Source: Flavobacteriales bacterium (lineage in GTDB: Bacteria > Bacteroidota > Bacteroidia > Flavobacteriales_F > PHOS-HE28). From it: DNA of 64,000 bases. Each line of letters opens with the position of its first letter. The stretch's first letter is position 1. The stretch lies in assembly GCA_016703005.1 (NCBI GenBank), contig JADJCX010000033.1:164430-228429 (forward strand), given 5' to 3'. Below, piece after piece: positions 266 through 48,054 of the stretch. The position numbers and the translations under genes are program-made. The notes beneath the pieces are model-generated. The model saw only the letters and a list, made by a program, of their open reading frames with translations. It did no database searches and had not been told where the DNA came from.

Positions 266-2707
266 ATGCGCCGAATGCGCCTCTTCCCCCTGACCGCCCT
301 CACTTTTACCCTGCTGCCAGCCGCGCTGCTCGCGCAGTTCGGTGCAGAGCAAACGATCGCCATCGAAGGTCCCGAAACCATGGAATTGGTTGACTTGGAC
401 CTCGACGGCGACCGCGATATGCTCGTGGGCAGTCGTATCGGTCTGCTGTACTTCGAGAACAGCGATGGCATGGGGAACTTCGCTGCACCCGTTACCATCG
501 GCGGCGGCGCCGAGAGCCGTGCGCATGTGGTGGACATGGATGGCAACGGTTGGCCGGACATCCTCGCTTCGCGTGAATTGAACGGCGGCATCGTGTGGTA
601 CCGCAACCTGGGCACCTTCGGTTGGAGCGCACCCTTGATGGTGCTGCCCGGCGCCACGGCCGTTGAACTGGGCCACGCCGACATCGACAACGATGGCGAT
701 CACGATCCCTACTTCGTATTGTCCATCAACACACTGGCGTGGTGCGAGAACACCGACGGCACCGGCACCATGAGCGCGGCCATGAGCATTACCCCGCTGT
801 ACAACAACGCCCGTGTGCAAGCCATCGACCTCGATGAGGACGCTGACCTTGACCTCGTATGGAGCGTGGGTCTGCCCGAGGAAATGGGTTGGTGCGCCAA
901 TCTCGGTGGAAGCTTCGCCGTTGCGCAGTCGATCAATACAAGCCGCAAAGGGAACATGAACGATCTCGATGGCGACGGTCGTTTCGATCTGATCAGCACG
1001 AGCAGCTTGGCCGGTGTGCTGGATTGGCAGCGCGGCCTCGATGCCCAACAGAATTTCGCAACGTTCAGCCCCGTTGCCATGGGCACATCCGCCGATGCGC
1101 TCTTGGTGCAGGACCTCGATGGCGACGGCGACAAGGACCTCGCGAGTTCCAACAGTTCCATCGACCAGATCATGTGGTACGAGAACATTGACGGACAGGG
1201 GAGCTTCGGTCCGGCGCAGATCATCGCCTACGGCGTTGACGATGCCCACAAGCTGGTCGCTGGCGATCTCGACGGCGATGGTGATCCCGAATTCTTCGCC
1301 GCCACCAGCGTGCAGAACCGCATCGCGCGTTTCGAGAACCTCGAAGTGGCCCAGCTCATGATCTGCGGTCGCGTGTTCAACGATATCAATAGCGACGGCC
1401 TGTTCAACGGCACAGATCACGGCATGTACAACGTGCGTGTGGACCTGAACGATGGTCGCAGCACCTTCACCAACCACAGCGGTATCTACTGGTTCCAAGC
1501 TTCACCCGGCAACTACACGGTGGAAGTCGCAGCACCCCACATGTGGCAACTGACGAGCACCGGCATCGCCAATGCGATGGTGGCCGCGCCGAACGGTTCG
1601 GCATTGGGTCGCGATTTCAGCCTTCACGCCGATCAAGTGCTGAACGACTACACGGCTGAACTCACCAGTGGCAGCCTCCGCTGCCCGGCCGAGGTGCCGT
1701 ACTTCCTCACCGCCACCAACACCGGCAACCAAGTGCACGACCTGCGCATGGTGCTGACACTGGACAACATCAACACCTTCAACAGCGCCGACCCGCTGCC
1801 CACGAGCATCAACGGCAACACGATCACATGGGATTTTGCCACCGTGCAACCGAGCCACTCGCGCAACGTGGAGGTGAAGGTGCAGATGGCCGACGCCAAC
1901 TTCATGGGCACTGTGATGAATGATCACCTTGTGGCTGAAGCGATGGACAACGGCCAAGTGGTGCACACTGTGACCGCCGACAACCAAGCGACCTTGGTAT
2001 GCGCCTTCGACCCGAACGACAAACAAGTGCTGCCAGTTGGCGATGGTGTGGACCACCTCACTGCCATGAACACCACGCTCGAATACACCGTGCGCTTCAT
2101 GAATACCGGTAACGCACCGGCCTTGGACGTGGTGATCATCGACCAGCTCGATGCCGACCTGGACCCCGCGACCTTCCAAGTGCTGGCCAGCAGCCACACC
2201 GTGCATACGATCATGGAAGCCGACGGCGTGGTGCGTTTCGAGCACTACGGCATCAACCTGCCCGATTCCGGCGCCGACTACATCGGTAGCCAAGGCTTCG
2301 TGCGCTTCAGCATCCGCACGCTGAACAACCTGCCCGAAGGGACCGTCGCCAGCAACACGGCCGACATCCACTTCGACTATAACGCACCTATCGTAACGAA
2401 CACGGTGTTCAACACCCTCACCTACGGTATCGTGGACGGCATCGCCGAAACGGTAGTAGGGAAGGAGGTGTTGACCATCGTACCGAACCCGGTGCAGGAT
2501 CAGACCACCATCACCGTCTCCGCCATTTTCCTCGGCGCTGCCGATCTCTACCTCACCGACGCAGCGGGCCGCATCGTACGCCGTTGGAAAGTGCGCAGCG
2601 ACGAGCAAGTGCAGGTGAACATGGCCGGTACGCCAAGCGGTGTGTACGCACTGCAATTGGCATTGCCCGGTGAGCAAGCGCAGGTTGCGCGTATGGTCAT
2701 CGAGTAA
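266..2707 (+). CDS. Secreted FG-GAP/VCBS-repeat protein with Por (T9SS) C-terminal sorting domain
   Basis: 813-aa ORF. N-terminal signal peptide MRRMRLFPLTALTFTLLPAALLAQ. Repeated DLDGDGDxD / DIDNDGDHD calcium-binding FG-GAP-like motifs. C-terminus LTIVPNPVQDQTTITV...YALQL is typical of a T9SS CTD. Confidence 0.8.
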   Translation: MRRMRLFPLTALTFTLLPAALLAQFGAEQTIAIEGPETMELVDLDLDGDRDMLVGSRIGLLYFENSDGMGNFAAPVTIGGGAESRAHVVDMDGNGWPDILASRELNGGIVWYRNLGTFGWSAPLMVLPGATAVELGHADIDNDGDHDPYFVLSINTLAWCENTDGTGTMSAAMSITPLYNNARVQAIDLDEDADLDLVWSVGLPEEMGWCANLGGSFAVAQSINTSRKGNMNDLDGDGRFDLISTSSLAGVLDWQRGLDAQQNFATFSPVAMGTSADALLVQDLDGDGDKDLASSNSSIDQIMWYENIDGQGSFGPAQIIAYGVDDAHKLVAGDLDGDGDPEFFAATSVQNRIARFENLEVAQLMICGRVFNDINSDGLFNGTDHGMYNVRVDLNDGRSTFTNHSGIYWFQASPGNYTVEVAAPHMWQLTSTGIANAMVAAPNGSALGRDFSLHADQVLNDYTAELTSGSLRCPAEVPYFLTATNTGNQVHDLRMVLTLDNINTFNSADPLPTSINGNTITWDFATVQPSHSRNVEVKVQMADANFMGTVMNDHLVAEAMDNGQVVHTVTADNQATLVCAFDPNDKQVLPVGDGVDHLTAMNTTLEYTVRFMNTGNAPALDVVIIDQLDADLDPATFQVLASSHTVHTIMEADGVVRFEHYGINLPDSGADYIGSQGFVRFSIRTLNNLPEGTVASNTADIHFDYNAPIVTNTVFNTLTYGIVDGIAETVVGKEVLTIVPNPVQDQTTITVSAIFLGAADLYLTDAAGRIVRRWKVRSDEQVQVNMAGTPSGVYALQLALPGEQAQVARMVIE

Positions 2708-3581
2708 CGCCGAGCCCGAACAGGGCGATATCGTATTTGATCGGATCAGACGGGTCGAGCTTGCGGAGTTGTTCCGTCAGCTCGACCACGCTTTTCCAGT
2801 CGTCCTGTTTGCGGGTGAGCAAGCCCAGCTCCCGCGCCACGCGGCCGGTGTGTACATCGAGCGGAACGTGAAGTGCCGAGGCCGGGATCCGTTTCCACCA
2901 GCCCATATCGATACCGCGATCGTTCGGGCGCACCATCCACCGCAAGTACATGTTGATGCGCTTCGCGTTGCTGCCCTTCGATGGATCGGCCACATGCTTT
3001 TGCGTGCGCGCCTGATGCCTGGGTTCGAAGAAGCGCTGCTTGAAGAGGCTGATGCCCTCGGCCGTTCGCCAAGTGTCAATGGCGGTCGCGCTTGCTCGCG
3101 TGCCAGTAGCTCGCGGCTCGCGGCTAAAGGCTCGAGGCCCTTCCCCCAGAAAGCCCTCTTCGATCCCACCATACTGCTTGTACAAATGCCGCATGCCCAC
3201 GATGAAGTGCTTCAGGTCGATCCCGTTGAAGGTGCGGTGCACGAAACGATCGAGCCTGCGCAGCTCGGCCGATGACGCGTTCATGACAACATCGTGCGGC
3301 GCATCATCGAGCAGGTGCACCAGCTTCCACGCATTGGCAATGATGGTTTTGCGTTGTCCCCAAGCGATGGTCGCGGTGAGAAAGCCGATCACCTCGGCAT
3401 CGCCGCGCTTGCTGAACGAACGTGGCACCTGAACGGGATCCAGTTCGATGAAGGCCGGGTTGGCCAGCCGGTCGTAGGCCTCGTCCAAGAGTGCTTTCAC
3501 ATCCACGGGGCGAAGCTGCGCAAGACACTTCTTGGATGGCACAGCATGATCAGGATTTTCCACAGATGGCGCAGATGACAC
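2697..3581 (-). CDS. TIGR02757 (DUF2400) family protein
   Basis: 294-aa ORF. LDPVQVPRSF...GFLTATIAWGQRKTII...FVHRTFNG matches the conserved DUF2400 core. The 5' end overlaps the tandem repeat, so the start is uncertain. Confidence 0.65.
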   Translation of the reverse strand: MSSAPSVENPDHAVPSKKCLAQLRPVDVKALLDEAYDRLANPAFIELDPVQVPRSFSKRGDAEVIGFLTATIAWGQRKTIIANAWKLVHLLDDAPHDVVMNASSAELRRLDRFVHRTFNGIDLKHFIVGMRHLYKQYGGIEEGFLGEGPRAFSREPRATGTRASATAIDTWRTAEGISLFKQRFFEPRHQARTQKHVADPSKGSNAKRINMYLRWMVRPNDRGIDMGWWKRIPASALHVPLDVHTGRVARELGLLTRKQDDWKSVVELTEQLRKLDPSDPIKYDIALFGLGVTR

Positions 3582-3790
3582 AGATATCGCCTACGGCGAT
3601 CGGCGCGCGTTGCGCCTGCGACAGCAGGCCATCTGTGCTATCTGCGTCATCTGCGGAAGACAATTCTTAGATGGCACGATGGTCAGGATTTTCCACAGAT
3701 GGCGCAGATGACACAGATGGCGCCTTCGGCGAATGGCGCACTCGAAGCCTGCGACAGCAGGCTATCTGTGCCATCTGCGTCATCTGCGGA
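3529..3790. repeat. Tandem duplication (2 x ~136 bp) of an element with 26-bp inverted arms built from 9-bp-spaced CAGATG iterons
   Basis: Unit 1 (~3529-3657) and unit 2 (~3665-3790) are ~85% identical. Each holds ccacagatggcgcagatgacacagat ... atctgtgc(t/c)atctgcgtcatctgcgg (3xCAGATG then 3xCATCTG). It lies in the divergent region between the DUF2400 gene and the 3866 gene. Confidence 0.7.
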
Positions 3791-3865
3791 TAATGACCCT
3801 TGCGGCCAAGGTCACCGGACAGGATATTGGGGATGCGTTAGATTCATCGGCCCGAACCCCTCCTC

Positions 3866-4663
3866 ATGAGAGCACCCGTACTCCTCCTGTCCTCAACAGT
3901 ATTGTTCAGCAACGTTGCGGCACAGACCATCTGCAATCCCTTGGGCAACGTTGCGATCTACAGCAACTACGATGGGGGCGACCTCCACATCGTGGTGGAC
4001 CAGAACGTACCCGACCTGCACATCGGCATTGTGAGTTACGAGTTCAGCCGCATCACCATCAGCGGTGCGTTCGCGGCCAACGTGGTTGCCGTGTGGTATG
4101 CCGGTTACAATGCGGACAACGACCATTGCAGCCTCGGTGGTGCCAACCTGAGCACCACGGTGACGGGCGTACCGGCAAATATCGTGGACATCCAATTGTA
4201 TCCTCCCGCCACGTGGCCCAATGCCAACGGCAACGGCAGCATCATCTGTGGGTACACCTGCGATGTCAACACGAGCCAAGGTGGTTGCAACACGGCCGAC
4301 CAGATCGCCCATTACTTCCTGAGCAACTGGGGCGGCGACCTGCGTTATCACTTCACGCAATACGGCTGTTGGAACAGTCCGTACACGTTGAGCGACGGCG
4401 GCAATTGCTGCGAGGATCCGTTGAGCACCGCTGTAGCGGCCAATAGCGCCGAACATGCACCAGCTGCCTTTCCGAACCCGGCCCACAACACAGTGGATCT
4501 CGGCGTGCCCGGACAAGTCGAAGTGATGGATGCGACCGGCCGTGCGGTGATCCTGACAACTGATCACCGGGGCGTGTTGGATGTGGTTGGCCTAACGCCC
4601 GGGGTGTACACCTACCGGATGATCGCTTCGGGTGGTGTTGGGCGCTTTGTGGTGGAGCGGTAG
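3866..4663 (+). CDS. Secreted hypothetical protein with T9SS C-terminal sorting domain
   Basis: 265-aa ORF. Signal peptide MRAPVLLLSSTVLFSNVAAQ. Cys-rich body. C-terminal FPNPAHNTVDLGVPGQVEVMDATGRAV...GVYTYRM matches the Por secretion CTD pattern. Confidence 0.7.
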   Translation: MRAPVLLLSSTVLFSNVAAQTICNPLGNVAIYSNYDGGDLHIVVDQNVPDLHIGIVSYEFSRITISGAFAANVVAVWYAGYNADNDHCSLGGANLSTTVTGVPANIVDIQLYPPATWPNANGNGSIICGYTCDVNTSQGGCNTADQIAHYFLSNWGGDLRYHFTQYGCWNSPYTLSDGGNCCEDPLSTAVAANSAEHAPAAFPNPAHNTVDLGVPGQVEVMDATGRAVILTTDHRGVLDVVGLTPGVYTYRMIASGGVGRFVVER

Positions 4664-5854: not shown

Positions 5855-5899
5855 GTTCAATGGGAACACTGCGCAGAACGCGCGGTGTTCCCATTGAAC
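5855..5899. terminator. Bidirectional hairpin terminator between convergent genes
   Basis: gttcaatgggaacac-N15-gtgttcccattgaac is a perfect 15-bp stem. It sits between the stop codons at 5837 (+) and 5902 (-). There is no strong T-run. Confidence 0.5.
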
Positions 5900-5901
5900 G
5901 G

Positions 5902-6111
5902 CTACAGTTTCACGATCAGCTGCACGCGTGCATTGCTCCCCCCGAGCTGCACTTCCACGTTGCATTCCATGCCCACCACTTTCGTGGGGTCACTACCGGT
6001 TTGCACCTTCACCGGCAGGCCGTCCACCAAGTGCAGGCGATCGCTGGCGGGGGTGCCATTGGCAATGCGGTAGTGAAGCACTTCAACAAGGTCCTTCAGT
6101 TGCTGTTCCAT
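5902..6111 (-). CDS. Small hypothetical protein (69 aa)
   Basis: The ORF ends immediately at the convergent terminator hairpin. No recognisable family. Confidence 0.3.
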   Translation of the reverse strand: MEQQLKDLVEVLHYRIANGTPASDRLHLVDGLPVKVQTGSDPTKVVGMECNVEVQLGGSNARVQLIVKL

Positions 6112-46655: not shown

Positions 46656-48054
46656 TACCCACGTTGCCTTCGACGATCGCTCCGTTCGTGGGTGCGGCTG
46701 TTGTACCGGAGAAGTTGGCGCCTACGGCCATGCCGCCTTCCACATCCAATTTGCTGGCAGGCGTGGTGGTGCCGATGCCCACGTTCGTTCCATCGTCGGT
46801 CATCACGCCATCGGTGAGTGTGGTGCCGTTCCACTTGGGCACCTGGTTCGTTGTGGCGCTGCTCACCTGCGGGTCCGTTTCAGCCGCCACGTTCTGCCAA
46901 GTGGCCGCACCGTTCGCATCCGAAGTGAGTACGCGGCCAGCGGCTTGTGTGCCATCGGCGATGCGCACGTTGCCCGCTACATGCAACTTGGCTGCGGGCG
47001 CGGTGGTGCCGATGCCGACGTTGCCTTCGATGATGGCTCCGTTCGCCGGTGCGGCTGTTGTACCGGAGTAGGTGGCGCCTACGGCCATGCCTCCTTCCAC
47101 ATCCAATTTGCTGGCGGGCGTGGTGGTGCCGATGCCCACGTTGCCCGTCGCATCTTCCACCATGGCGGCATCACCGAGAATGGTTCCCGTATTGCCGAAT
47201 TTGGCCAGGTGGTTCAAGGTGCCGTTGGCGTTCACCGCCGGGCCTACGGCACCTTGTGGGCCGACGGGGCCTTGCGGACCAACGGCCTTGCCGGCATTGA
47301 TCACGCTGGCATCGCTCAGCGTTACGTAGAGCGAATCGTTGGTGATCGCTGCGGTCGTTACCGATACCCCTTGCGGGCCGGTGGGGCCCGTGGATCCCGT
47401 GGGACCTTGCACACCCGTTGGGCCTTGGTCGCCTACCTCGCCAGCGATGCTCGCCGCCCATGAGCTGTATGTGCCGGAACCCATGGTCCTGTCCACCAGC
47501 ACCGTGATGTTAGCCACTCCGCCGCTGGTGATGTTCCCTTCCATCCATAGAGCCGTAGTGGGGTAAACGCTGATGCGTACACGGGAACCTATGTTATAGG
47601 CGGTGTTCCGGTCCAACGCGAACGACTTTGAACCGGTGCCGATGGTCTGCGAGGTGAAGGAAAAGGCGTAGTAGCCAGGACCCGATGCTCCAGTTGCTCC
47701 ATTGGACCCGTTCATACCGGTTATGGCGATGGTCCATGGGCTATACGTACCTGAGCCGAGCGCTCCTTGTAGCGATACTGACATGGATGTCCCGCTGGGG
47801 GTGTATGCAGTGACAGTACCGAACATGTAGTGTGTCGTGGGGTTGCCGGTCCTGCTGATCCTTACGTTATCGCCCACTTGATAAGCCAGGCCCGTTTGCG
47901 TGGCGAACGTGATAGTGCCACTTGGGGCAATGGTCATTGCCGTTGTGGACGTTGCGTAGTACCCCGGCCCAGTGGCTCCTTGCGGTCCTGTTGCTCCTGT
48001 TGCACCCGTTGCTCCTGTTGCGCCTACCGCTCCTTGCGGCCCTGTAGCGCCCAC
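46486..48054 (-). CDS. Central/C-proximal fragment of the giant protein (collagen-like Gly-X-Y tracts and beta-helix repeats)
   Basis: GATGATGATGATGPQGATGP, GPTGVQGPTGSTGPTGPQG, GPQGPVGPQGAVGP. GNVGIGTTTPASKLDVEGGMAVGA appears twice. Confidence 0.6.
   Translation of the reverse strand: MGATGPQGAVGATGATGATGATGPQGATGPGYYATSTTAMTIAPSGTITFATQTGLAYQVGDNVRISRTGNPTTHYMFGTVTAYTPSGTSMSVSLQGALGSGTYSPWTIAITGMNGSNGATGASGPGYYAFSFTSQTIGTGSKSFALDRNTAYNIGSRVRISVYPTTALWMEGNITSGGVANITVLVDRTMGSGTYSSWAASIAGEVGDQGPTGVQGPTGSTGPTGPQGVSVTTAAITNDSLYVTLSDASVINAGKAVGPQGPVGPQGAVGPAVNANGTLNHLAKFGNTGTILGDAAMVEDATGNVGIGTTTPASKLDVEGGMAVGATYSGTTAAPANGAIIEGNVGIGTTAPAAKLHVAGNVRIADGTQAAGRVLTSDANGAATWQNVAAETDPQVSSATTNQVPKWNGTTLTDGVMTDDGTNVGIGTTTPASKLDVEGGMAVGANFSGTTAAPTNGAIVEGNVGIGTNAPTDKLTVRTATSNFGFTHTDGTITVGSYVGEHQWRMVGHEEQPQPELLHQQ

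Follow-up and report, generated by a model that had tools for sequence, protein, structure and literature searches.

What is the tandemly repeated, hairpin-forming sequence that separates two divergently oriented genes in a Flavobacteriales genome assembly, and is it a switch for those genes or an element with a life of its own? The sequence lies in a 64,000-nucleotide (nt) stretch of contig JADJCX010000033.1 (assembly GCA_016703005.1, positions 164,430 to 228,429), here called the window, where two units stand between a DUF2400 gene and a 265-amino-acid (aa) gene with a putative type IX secretion system (T9SS) sorting signal. An original prediction made from the sequence had proposed an iteron-type regulator-binding array, a small structured RNA, or a recombinogenic element. 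Only the last accords with the evidence, namely the dispersed family, presence/absence variation, tandem arrays, and associated nuclease gene described below. The two units are gene-less copies of a dispersed family of repeat-armed hairpins and, as such, probably nonautonomous relatives of a selfish cassette that bears a nuclease gene. The arms by which we define the family consist of 2 to 7 tandem 9- to 10-nt units that share a CNGAT core, which in the window reads CAGAT(G).

The tandem duplication that had been predicted is real: Tandem Repeats Finder (TRF) assigned positions 3516 to 3790 to a single array with a period of 133, 2.1 copies, and 87% matches (score, 422). A repeat finder returned two 112-nt copies, 133 nt apart and 88% identical, and alignment of unit 1 with unit 2 gave 89% column identity (87 to 89% over the methods). 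Both units contain the three 9-bp-spaced CAGATG repeats and the inverted arms of the original prediction (Table 1). The left-arm CAGAT(G) motifs lie at 3563, 3572, and 3581 in unit 1 and at 3696, 3705, and 3714 in unit 2 (period, 9 nt), and the right arms, each reading ATCTGTGCY-ATCTGCGT-CATCTGCGG, follow 45 nt beyond the left arms at 3631 to 3653 and 3764 to 3786. Complementarity between the arms is 85 to 88%. With up to two mismatches allowed, the string CAGATGN3CAGATGN3CAGAT matched four times in the window and not once in 100 shuffles. Each unit is predicted to fold into a stable hairpin (−68 to −72 kcal/mol; z scores, −5.1 to −6.8), equally stable on both strands, with a stem of ~30 bp (26 to 30 bp, where ~26 bp had been proposed) topped by two small inner GC hairpins. 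The loops measure only 43 to 45 nt, and the window copies are therefore gene-less. No further copy of the unit and no other array of this type was found within the 64-kb window, and neither Rfam nor rRNA searches gave a match there; the window copy is intergenic.

Copy number varies at the orthologous DUF2400 locus of relatives. Like the window, a Joint Genome Institute (JGI) metagenome contig (L121) and an NCBI metagenome-assembled genome (MAG; L122), whose DUF2400 proteins are 99% and 92% identical to that of the window, respectively, carry two units at the same place. The complete genome CP064979.1 (L124; 76% identity) has one unit plus an orphan half-arm, and a relative with the same synteny (L125/L126; 76% identity) has none, its intergenic spacer being 67 nt. 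An assembly artifact, an eventuality for which the original prediction had allowed, is ruled out, because the array stands at this locus in independent assemblies of relatives. Unit 2 of the window is 99% identical to the matching unit of L121 and 93% identical to that of L122. In L122 (positions 5895 to 6000, compared with 3516 to 3660 of the window) the loop of the DUF2400-proximal unit is of the distal unit's type, and one 9-nt repeat is gone from both arms of this proximal unit. This loop swap and paired arm loss point to conversion between the tandem units and to maintenance of arm complementarity, whether by selection or by a mechanism. Among the relatives with 76 to 99% DUF2400 identity, conservation of the arms exceeds that of the spacer around them. 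Overall, copies of the element are gained, lost, tandemly amplified, and homogenized.

The unit clearly occurs elsewhere; confinement to this locus would have counted against the original prediction. A scan of one genome per GTDB species with the pattern CAGATN4CAGATN4CAGAT-N{30,60}-ATCTGN4ATCTG, for which we estimate a chance expectation of ~0.03 matches, identified at least 120 matching loci, spread over more than 10 phyla. Among the matches listed, to which the statements on hosts, arm composition, and gene context here and in the next paragraph refer, the hosts include Flavobacterium, Bacteroidales, and Hymenobacter; Acidobacteriota, Planctomycetota, Chloroflexota, NC10, Nitrospirota, Gemmatimonadota, and Verrucomicrobiota; and Desantisbacteria, a few Proteobacteria, one cyanobacterium, one candidate phyla radiation (CPR) bacterium, and two archaea. 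The loci have in common, over 135 elements, the 9-mer C-R-C-A-G-A-T-T-W (conservation outside the positions fixed by the pattern: C,.86; R, 1.0; T,.71) and a stem base (T)TATCC-R, with 2 to 7 units per arm and loops of 13 to 107 nt (median, 41). Clades differ in the stem base, which reads CTCTCGCAGAT in Flavobacterium and GCACACAGAT in Bacteroidales. Throughout the family the two arms covary, 79.7% of variable positions being Watson-Crick paired versus 58% with shuffled partners (maximum, 64% in 1,000 shuffles), and G:T and A:C mismatches are equally frequent. Within one Desantisbacteria MAG five copies have a common loop and ~60 nt of common flanks, while across genomes the arms alone are common; such within-genome sharing is the pattern that would be expected of copy-and-paste spread. 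No direct repeat indicative of a target-site duplication was present at the ends of the Desantisbacteria copies.

By crude open reading frame (ORF) calls, 61 of the hairpins lie between co-directional genes, 27 between convergent genes, and 7 of 95 between divergent ones. The hairpin is within 30 nt of 58 of the 130 flanking 3′ ends and of 24 of the 86 flanking 5′ ends, the copies being mostly situated just past stop codons, and the flanking genes are ordinary and mutually unrelated. Relative to the upstream gene, the sense strand is no stabler than the antisense strand (29 versus 36, P = 0.36). Genes caught between pairs of hairpins (P450, Na/H exchanger, apiosidase, STAS, RecA, UbiX) were examined as candidate cargo and ruled out, each being an ordinary gene between two separate hairpins. 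For 26 family loci, Rfam gave no family match at gathering or relaxed thresholds; apart from tRNA, signal recognition particle (SRP), and large-subunit (LSU) rRNA, there were just generic microRNA-hairpin models far below their cutoffs. IMG/VR has a further 22 putatively viral or proviral contigs that match the CAGAT hairpin pattern (L216 to L237), with several copies in some. A BLAST search of plasmids with the window unit returned just chance 30-nt matches in Ralstonia.

What ties the family to a particular gene is the content of its longer members. In a Bacteroides MAG (L078), a four-unit CAGAT arm and the arm complementary to it precisely enclose a 128-aa ORF, which encodes a GxxExxY protein (TIGR04256, 2.7e-40; PF13366 PDDEXK_3, 3e-42). 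A motif scan of the hairpin loci (~850 kb) detected three GxxExxY genes, all embedded in or flanked by hairpins: that of L078, one in a Terriglobia sequence (L086) between TTATCCGCAGATGTCG... and ...CGACATCTGCGGATTAA, and one in a Flavobacteriales MAG (L085) that is flanked on both sides by complete hairpins, with an additional orphan arm, and whose arms, CCGCAGATGACGCAGATGACACAGATGA, are almost those of the window. The association held in an independent sample of 80 metagenome GxxExxY loci retrieved by protein similarity alone. Among the 71 with both flanks, 66% had a flanking inverted repeat scoring at least 14, versus 0 of 174 shifted controls (control maximum, 11), and RCAGAT upstream plus ATCTGY downstream of the gene exceeded the reverse orientation ~5-fold, well above background. 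The arms of these cassettes consist of 2 to 4 tandem 9- to 10-nt units whose core is, by lineage, CAGAT, CGGAT, CTGAT, CAAAT, or CAGGAT; left and right arms are 80 to 100% identical and 370 to 450 nt apart. The start codon is sometimes located in the innermost repeat (CAGATGACC in L078, CAGATGAAC in L165). In ~80% of cases the cassette has the direction of its neighbors (upstream neighbor, 51 of 62; downstream neighbor, 49 of 62). Screening of 72,556 plasmids found consensus arms in 2 and GxxExxY in 8; Gemmatirosa plasmid 1, in both sets, has a three-unit CGGAT hairpin directly after the GxxExxY gene. GxxExxY cassettes were also seen to recur between leuC, leuD, and leuA (L078, L131, L132, L150, L152, and L153) and just upstream of ispF (L164, L177, and L185). 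This recurrence, in different lineages and with different arm cores, suggests ancient insertions or site preference.

The link extends to the clade of the window. GxxExxY proteins 80 to 94% identical to that of L085 are encoded in many "Flavobacteriales bacterium" MAGs. Arms of the sequence TTCCGCAGATGGCGCAGATGGCACAGATGA, close to the TTCCACAGATGGCGCAGATGACACAGAT of the window, surround the gene in L215, L211, and L085. In L215, a member of the window's clade, the flanking hairpins have arms TTCCGCAGATGGCGCAGATGGCACAGATGA and TTCCGCAGATGGCACAGATGTCACAGATAA, and in L211 the gene is preceded by 4 to 5 tandem hairpin units (period, ~180 nt) and followed by several more. The family arms are thus of the same kind as those that enclose or flank GxxExxY genes, including in this clade. 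Tandem arrays and this exact arm type accompany the GxxExxY locus in the clade, and the window holds an orphan pair of such hairpins. Its units have at least two tandem 9- to 10-nt CNGAT-type repeats, complementary arms, and the stem base, and arms of the same lineage are found around a GxxExxY gene; no such gene lies in or next to the window units themselves.

GxxExxY (TIGR04256/PF13366) is a minimal, ~125-aa family of PD-(D/E)XK nucleases with 29,543 cluster representatives at 50% identity. Residues D68, E78, and K80 are invariant, so that the D...ExK catalytic triad is intact and the protein is probably an active nuclease, whose substrate would be DNA, a branched structure, or RNA. Searches against PADLOC, PHROGs, and PDB sequences gave no matches, and by sequence there is no solved homologue. 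A survey of PD-(D/E)XK proteins lists the function of GxxExxY as "Unknown" (Steczkiewicz et al. 2012), and no functional study of GxxExxY, PDDEXK_3, or TIGR04256 was found in the searchable literature. In the longer hairpin relatives, the 125-aa PD-(D/E)XK protein is the sole product, with no DDE or serine/tyrosine recombinase.

Two family members reside in an rRNA gene, where they invite comparison with intervening sequences (IVSs). A Candidatus Falkowbacteria MAG (L024) carries two CAGAT-type hairpins inside its 23S rRNA gene, at 798 to 853 and 1469 to 1542 (Rfam LSU, 1,094 bits); one of them accounts for a 90-nt insertion near model position 225, outside the classical helix-25 and helix-45 IVS sites. 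Known IVSs are stem-loops with terminal stems of ~28 bp that are excised by RNase III and sometimes have an S23p ORF in the loop; their origin is unexplained, origin and mobility having been open since 1990, and they are thought to be selfish (PMC4990558). A terminal stem of ~25 to 30 bp enclosing a short loop or an ORF is found both in the folds of the window and in the ORF-bearing relatives, and insertion in a 23S rRNA helix, absent from the window copy, is found in the L024 family members. As a separate observation, genes for PF05635 (23S_rRNA_IVP), the S23p-like four-helix-bundle family, occur as several 85 to 97% identical paralogues per contig in L034 (two copies, e.g., 2407 to 2958, minus strand), L238 (1001 to 1426), and L239 (1001 to 1375), bracketed by inverted short-repeat arrays (CAGCGnCAG upstream, CTGnCGCTG downstream). 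These loci have the same repeat-armed cassette architecture with another cargo, a lead from a small sample. No such arms are described in the searchable IVS literature.

As a gene-less copy within so widespread a family, the element has the appearance of a selfish, mobile hairpin and not of a switch for the genes beside it. Because full-length relatives enclose or flank a GxxExxY gene, the gene-less window copies would be nonautonomous, in a relationship that is best read, by analogy, as that of repetitive extragenic palindromic (REP) doublets forming hairpins (REPINs) to the REP-associated tyrosine transposase (RAYT) gene or of ORF-less to ORF-bearing 23S IVSs. In the mechanism that we propose, the 9- to 10-nt units would act as a recognition register for a GxxExxY nuclease whose gene lies elsewhere in the genome. 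This enzyme would nick or cut the extruded hairpin or cruciform DNA and would thereby drive the copying and tandem amplification of the element, conversion between its copies, and, occasionally, its insertion at new sites. Once transcribed, the ~30-bp stem may serve as an IVS-like, RNase III-type processing site, and this would explain how the element can be tolerated in intercistronic sites, past stop codons, and within rRNA. At the locus studied here, the element is probably a passenger in the intergenic region of the DUF2400 and T9SS genes and not a regulator.

Several observations weigh against this interpretation. About one-third of the GxxExxY loci are without a strong flanking repeat, and the 64-kb window contains no GxxExxY-like ORF, the link to the gene being seen in MAGs of the same clade. 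We infer that the nuclease recognizes the hairpin, that the mechanism operates on DNA, and that RNase III cleaves the stem. The copy number is low in this lineage (one locus in 64 kb, none elsewhere in ~100 kb of relatives), which makes the evidence of activity weaker than in high-copy genomes. The filled and empty orthologous sites are too diverged to compare, and neither a target-site duplication nor a precise junction between the two states could be defined. Finally, a divergent promoter position is atypical for the family (7 of 95), and the element may have a local effect on transcription from the two divergent promoters; that position, with no promoter located, leaves room for such an effect.

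Of the other explanations, the likeliest is that the hairpins work at the RNA level only, as IVS-like processing or stability stems that are cut by RNase III or protect 3′ ends and that spread by ordinary recombination. GxxExxY would then be a passenger ORF using the stem for its excision and expression, with no role in hairpin movement or maintenance. The family members within the 23S rRNA gene of L024, the gene-less copies just past stop codons (58 of 130 flanking 3′ ends), the shared direction of cassettes and neighbors, and the start codons in the innermost arm repeat are all as this would have it, and so is the precedent of IVSs with ~28-bp RNase III-cut stems and an ORF in the loop (PMC4990558). 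We nevertheless think it unlikely. G-U pairs would be expected on the transcribed strand, whereas G:T and A:C mismatches are symmetric and the sense strand shows no stability bias; the CNGAT 9-mer register common to many phyla and the conserved catalytic triad are left unexplained; and 3′-end functions do not apply to a window copy that lies between divergent genes. The absence of strand bias speaks against a constraint at the RNA level alone and is still compatible with RNA processing. The proposal of a tandemly duplicated gene for a stand-alone, structured small RNA fared worse and now seems highly unlikely: the predicted fold is indeed very stable, with z scores down to −6.8, and arm covariation is family-wide, but folding is as good on one strand as on the other, conservation of the loop does not extend across genomes, Rfam gives no match at gathering or relaxed thresholds, and no promoter or terminator signature was detected.

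Among DNA-level alternatives, a REP/REPIN-type element moved by a Y1 HUH transposase (RAYT), of class 3 ("CnGA" foot) or of subclass 2.1 (DnaA-like 9-bp-binding helix-turn-helix) of Quentin et al., would make the GxxExxY link secondary. The behavior is REP-like (extragenic copies, near 3′ ends, in tandem clusters, with genome-specific variants), class-3 Y1 genes of Planctomycetes and Acidobacteria are flanked by atypical CnGA-foot hairpins, and subclass 2.1 RAYTs have a Bac_DnaA_C-like domain and no known REP (PMC6006769). Class 3 TnpA_Y1 is rare, its 5′ "CnGA"-foot hairpins reaching ~600 copies in Solibacter usitatus (Quentin et al. 2018; PMC6006769); compared by description alone, these could be the same as the CNGAT hairpins. 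A RAYT-driven origin is quite improbable all the same. REPs have a 5′ GT[AG]G foot and a short stem of 7 to 20 bp, while the window element has no GTAG foot and stems of ~30 bp, three times longer than the REPs in Table S1 of PMC6006769. No HUH/Y1-motif ORF was found in the window or in the ~850 kb of the 120 hairpin loci, versus three GxxExxY genes in those loci, and class 3 is reported from <0.3% of species, far more narrowly than the hairpins. For a locus-specific operator or iteron array, in which the twelve CAGATG sites would bind a regulator of the divergent DUF2400 and T9SS-cargo promoters, speak the divergent intergenic location and retention in relatives with 76 to 99% DUF2400 identity, with arms better conserved than the spacer. 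The data run counter to this part of the original prediction, which we judge very unlikely: a syntenic relative (L125/L126), with its 67-nt intergenic region, does without the element, the locus has anywhere from 0 to 2 copies, the same arms occur beside unrelated genes in many phyla, mainly after stop codons, and in 23S rRNA, and no promoter-like signals were detected by scans that are weak for Bacteroidota. Finally, the nine-mers could bind DnaA, for titration or in a DnaA-reactivating sequence (DARS)/datA-like function. The DnaA-box consensus is TTWTNCACA. A 9-bp period and the stem-base TTATCCRCA (in the window, TTTTCCACA at 3555 to 3563 and TTATCCGCA at 3786 to 3794) recall it, yet the stem-base 9-mer alone fits: the internal units (TTWCRCAGA or GATTACRCA, depending on the register) differ at two key positions, the stem base itself is clade dependent, as described above for Flavobacterium and Bacteroidales, and other lineages have CGGAT, CAAAT, or CAGGAT cores. 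As the inner repeats and the other clades do not fit, the resemblance is probably coincidental, and a DnaA-box cluster is scarcely credible.

The neighboring genes bear on the original prediction in two respects. The divergent intergenic position and the DUF2400 assignment stood; the T9SS cargo assignment is less secure, as the Por_Secre_tail match of the 265-aa gene is weak and below threshold, a syntenic homologue being marked likewise. An exact-protein look-up of this gene returned no record. The supposed overlap of the element with the 5′ end of the DUF2400 gene did not survive. The longest DUF2400 ORF (2697 to 3581, minus strand) opens at a GTG at 3581, within hairpin unit 1, while the conserved N terminus of the homologues (VDVKALLDEAY) aligns from the GTG at 3506, which indicates that the ORF was over-extended through unit 1. 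Gene callers over-extend ORFs across these hairpins elsewhere too, and many GxxExxY entries of 140 to 200 aa appear to be of this sort. Promoter and terminator scans of the locus, which are weak for Bacteroidota, gave no signals. On the far side of the DUF2400 gene, an 813-aa FG-GAP/T9SS-tail gene (266 to 2707, plus strand) is convergent with it, their 3′ ends overlapping by ~11 nt, an arrangement kept in relatives. Elsewhere in the window, a GTTGC 5-mer is repeated four times at 9- to 10-nt spacing (TCCTGTTGCTCCTGTTGCACCCGTTGCTCCTGTTGCGCC, 47990 to 48021); having no inverted partner, it is probably a coding repeat.

Table 1. Coordinates of the tandem hairpin element and of the two genes beside it, in window positions
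Feature	Position	Strand	Basis
DUF2400/TIGR02757 gene, probable true start GTG 3506 (context, outside element)	2697..3506	-	Pfam PF09674, 3e-75; homologues align from VDVKALL
Tandem unit 1: linker, hairpin 1, and start of next linker (135 bp)	3516..3650	.	TRF array; unit alignment
Hairpin 1 left arm, TTTTCC-ACAGATGGC-GCAGATGAC-ACAGATA, three 9-nt units	3555..3586	.	Inverted repeats I2/I4; pattern match 3563-3585; fold stem
Hairpin 1 apical region, two small inner hairpins (ATCGCCTACGGCGAT, 3586-3600; GCCTGCGACAGCAGGC, 3614-3629)	3587..3629	.	Fold; palindrome I15; sequence conserved only within the clade
Hairpin 1 right arm, CATCTGTGC-TATCTGCGT-CATCTGCGGAA	3630..3658	.	Inverted repeat I4, 86% complementary; minus-strand pattern match 3631-3653
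Tandem unit 2: linker and hairpin 2	3651..3795	.	TRF; repeat finder; unit alignment
Hairpin 2 left arm, three CAGATG units	3688..3721	.	Inverted repeat I1, 34 nt, 85% complementary; pattern match 3696-3718
Hairpin 2 right arm, terminus ...CATCTGCGGATAAT (family stem-base motif ATCCRCAGAT/ATCTGYGGAT)	3761..3794	.	Inverted repeat I1; family logo of stem base T-T-A-T-C-C-R
Degenerate start of a third unit, GGACAGGATATTGGGGATGCG (cf. GGTCAGGATTTTCCACAGATGGCG)	3817..3838	.	Direct-repeat family D3: third copy 3817-3828, 136 nt past second
265-aa gene, weak T9SS C-terminal sorting signal (context, outside element)	3866..4663	+	ORF list; Por_Secre_tail, 21.6 bits vs 27-bit cutoff

The hairpin family and its association with GxxExxY are apparently new, no description having been found in the searchable literature (subscription-only papers and database comments lay outside the search); a search of the same scope for the exact repeat strings likewise yielded no paper. 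If the interpretation as gene-less copies of a nuclease-bearing cassette is right, it would give a very large protein family without known function its first functional context. It would also define a family of hairpin repeats with members in Bacteroidota, Acidobacteriota, Planctomycetota, Chloroflexota, NC10, Nitrospirota, Gemmatimonadota, and further phyla, and would tie these elements to the 23S rRNA IVSs, whose origin and mobility have long been open (PMC4990558). In practical terms, the hairpins mislead gene callers into N-terminal over-extensions and are hot spots of tandem amplification and conversion. More tentatively, and as a possibility that we do not favor outright, GxxExxY nucleases and tandem-repeat-armed hairpins could together form an unrecognized class of mobile elements across many phyla, the PD-(D/E)XK counterpart of RAYT-REPIN, in which gene-less hairpins are nonautonomous copies or homing targets and which, with GxxExxY or S23p cargo, is the source of the 23S IVSs. 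Selfish hairpin repeats with a cognate nuclease are a known kind of element; there is a realistic chance that the present ones make up a distinct class.

How the element compares with known systems depends on whether its behavior or its form is considered. Opposed arrays of contiguous, head-to-tail short direct repeats are also seen in iteron and operator arrays (plasmid Rep iterons, MetJ/omega-type); here there is no tie to an origin or to one regulon, the arrays lie next to unrelated genes and in rRNA, and the arms covary as those of a hairpin do. Miniature inverted-repeat transposable elements (MITEs) are likewise short, noncoding, bounded by inverted repeats, multicopy in some genomes, and matched by longer gene-bearing versions with the same ends. 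In contrast to them, the parent here encodes a 125-aa nuclease, not a DDE transposase, and the inverted repeats make up nearly the whole element and are internally periodic; no target-site duplication was seen, and the lack of a transposase separates the element from classical MITEs. With 23S IVSs the family shares the terminal stem of ~28 to 30 bp, the occurrence of short forms without an ORF alongside long forms with one, a sporadic distribution across phyla, and a presumed selfish nature. It differs in that the window copy and most family members are intergenic or intercistronic and that the cargo is GxxExxY and not S23p; tandem-repeat arms have, to our knowledge, not been described for IVSs. 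With REP/REPIN elements and their RAYT (TnpA_REP) gene, the "REPtron," it shares dispersed extragenic palindromic hairpins near gene 3′ ends, tandem clusters, genome-specific variants, and a low-copy nuclease-type gene that is itself flanked by hairpins (here L085, L215, and L211). The enzyme, however, is a PD-(D/E)XK GxxExxY protein instead of the HUH Y1 enzyme of RAYTs, the stems are ~30 bp and built of tandem 9- to 10-nt units instead of ~10 to 20 bp with a 5′ GTAG foot, the gene lies inside the hairpin loop in many lineages, and the arm core is common across phyla. With no GTAG foot, no Y1-motif ORF in the hairpin loci or the window, and its window copy outside rRNA, the element is neither a REPIN/RAYT system nor an IVS proper; by analogy, it works most like the former and looks most like the latter.

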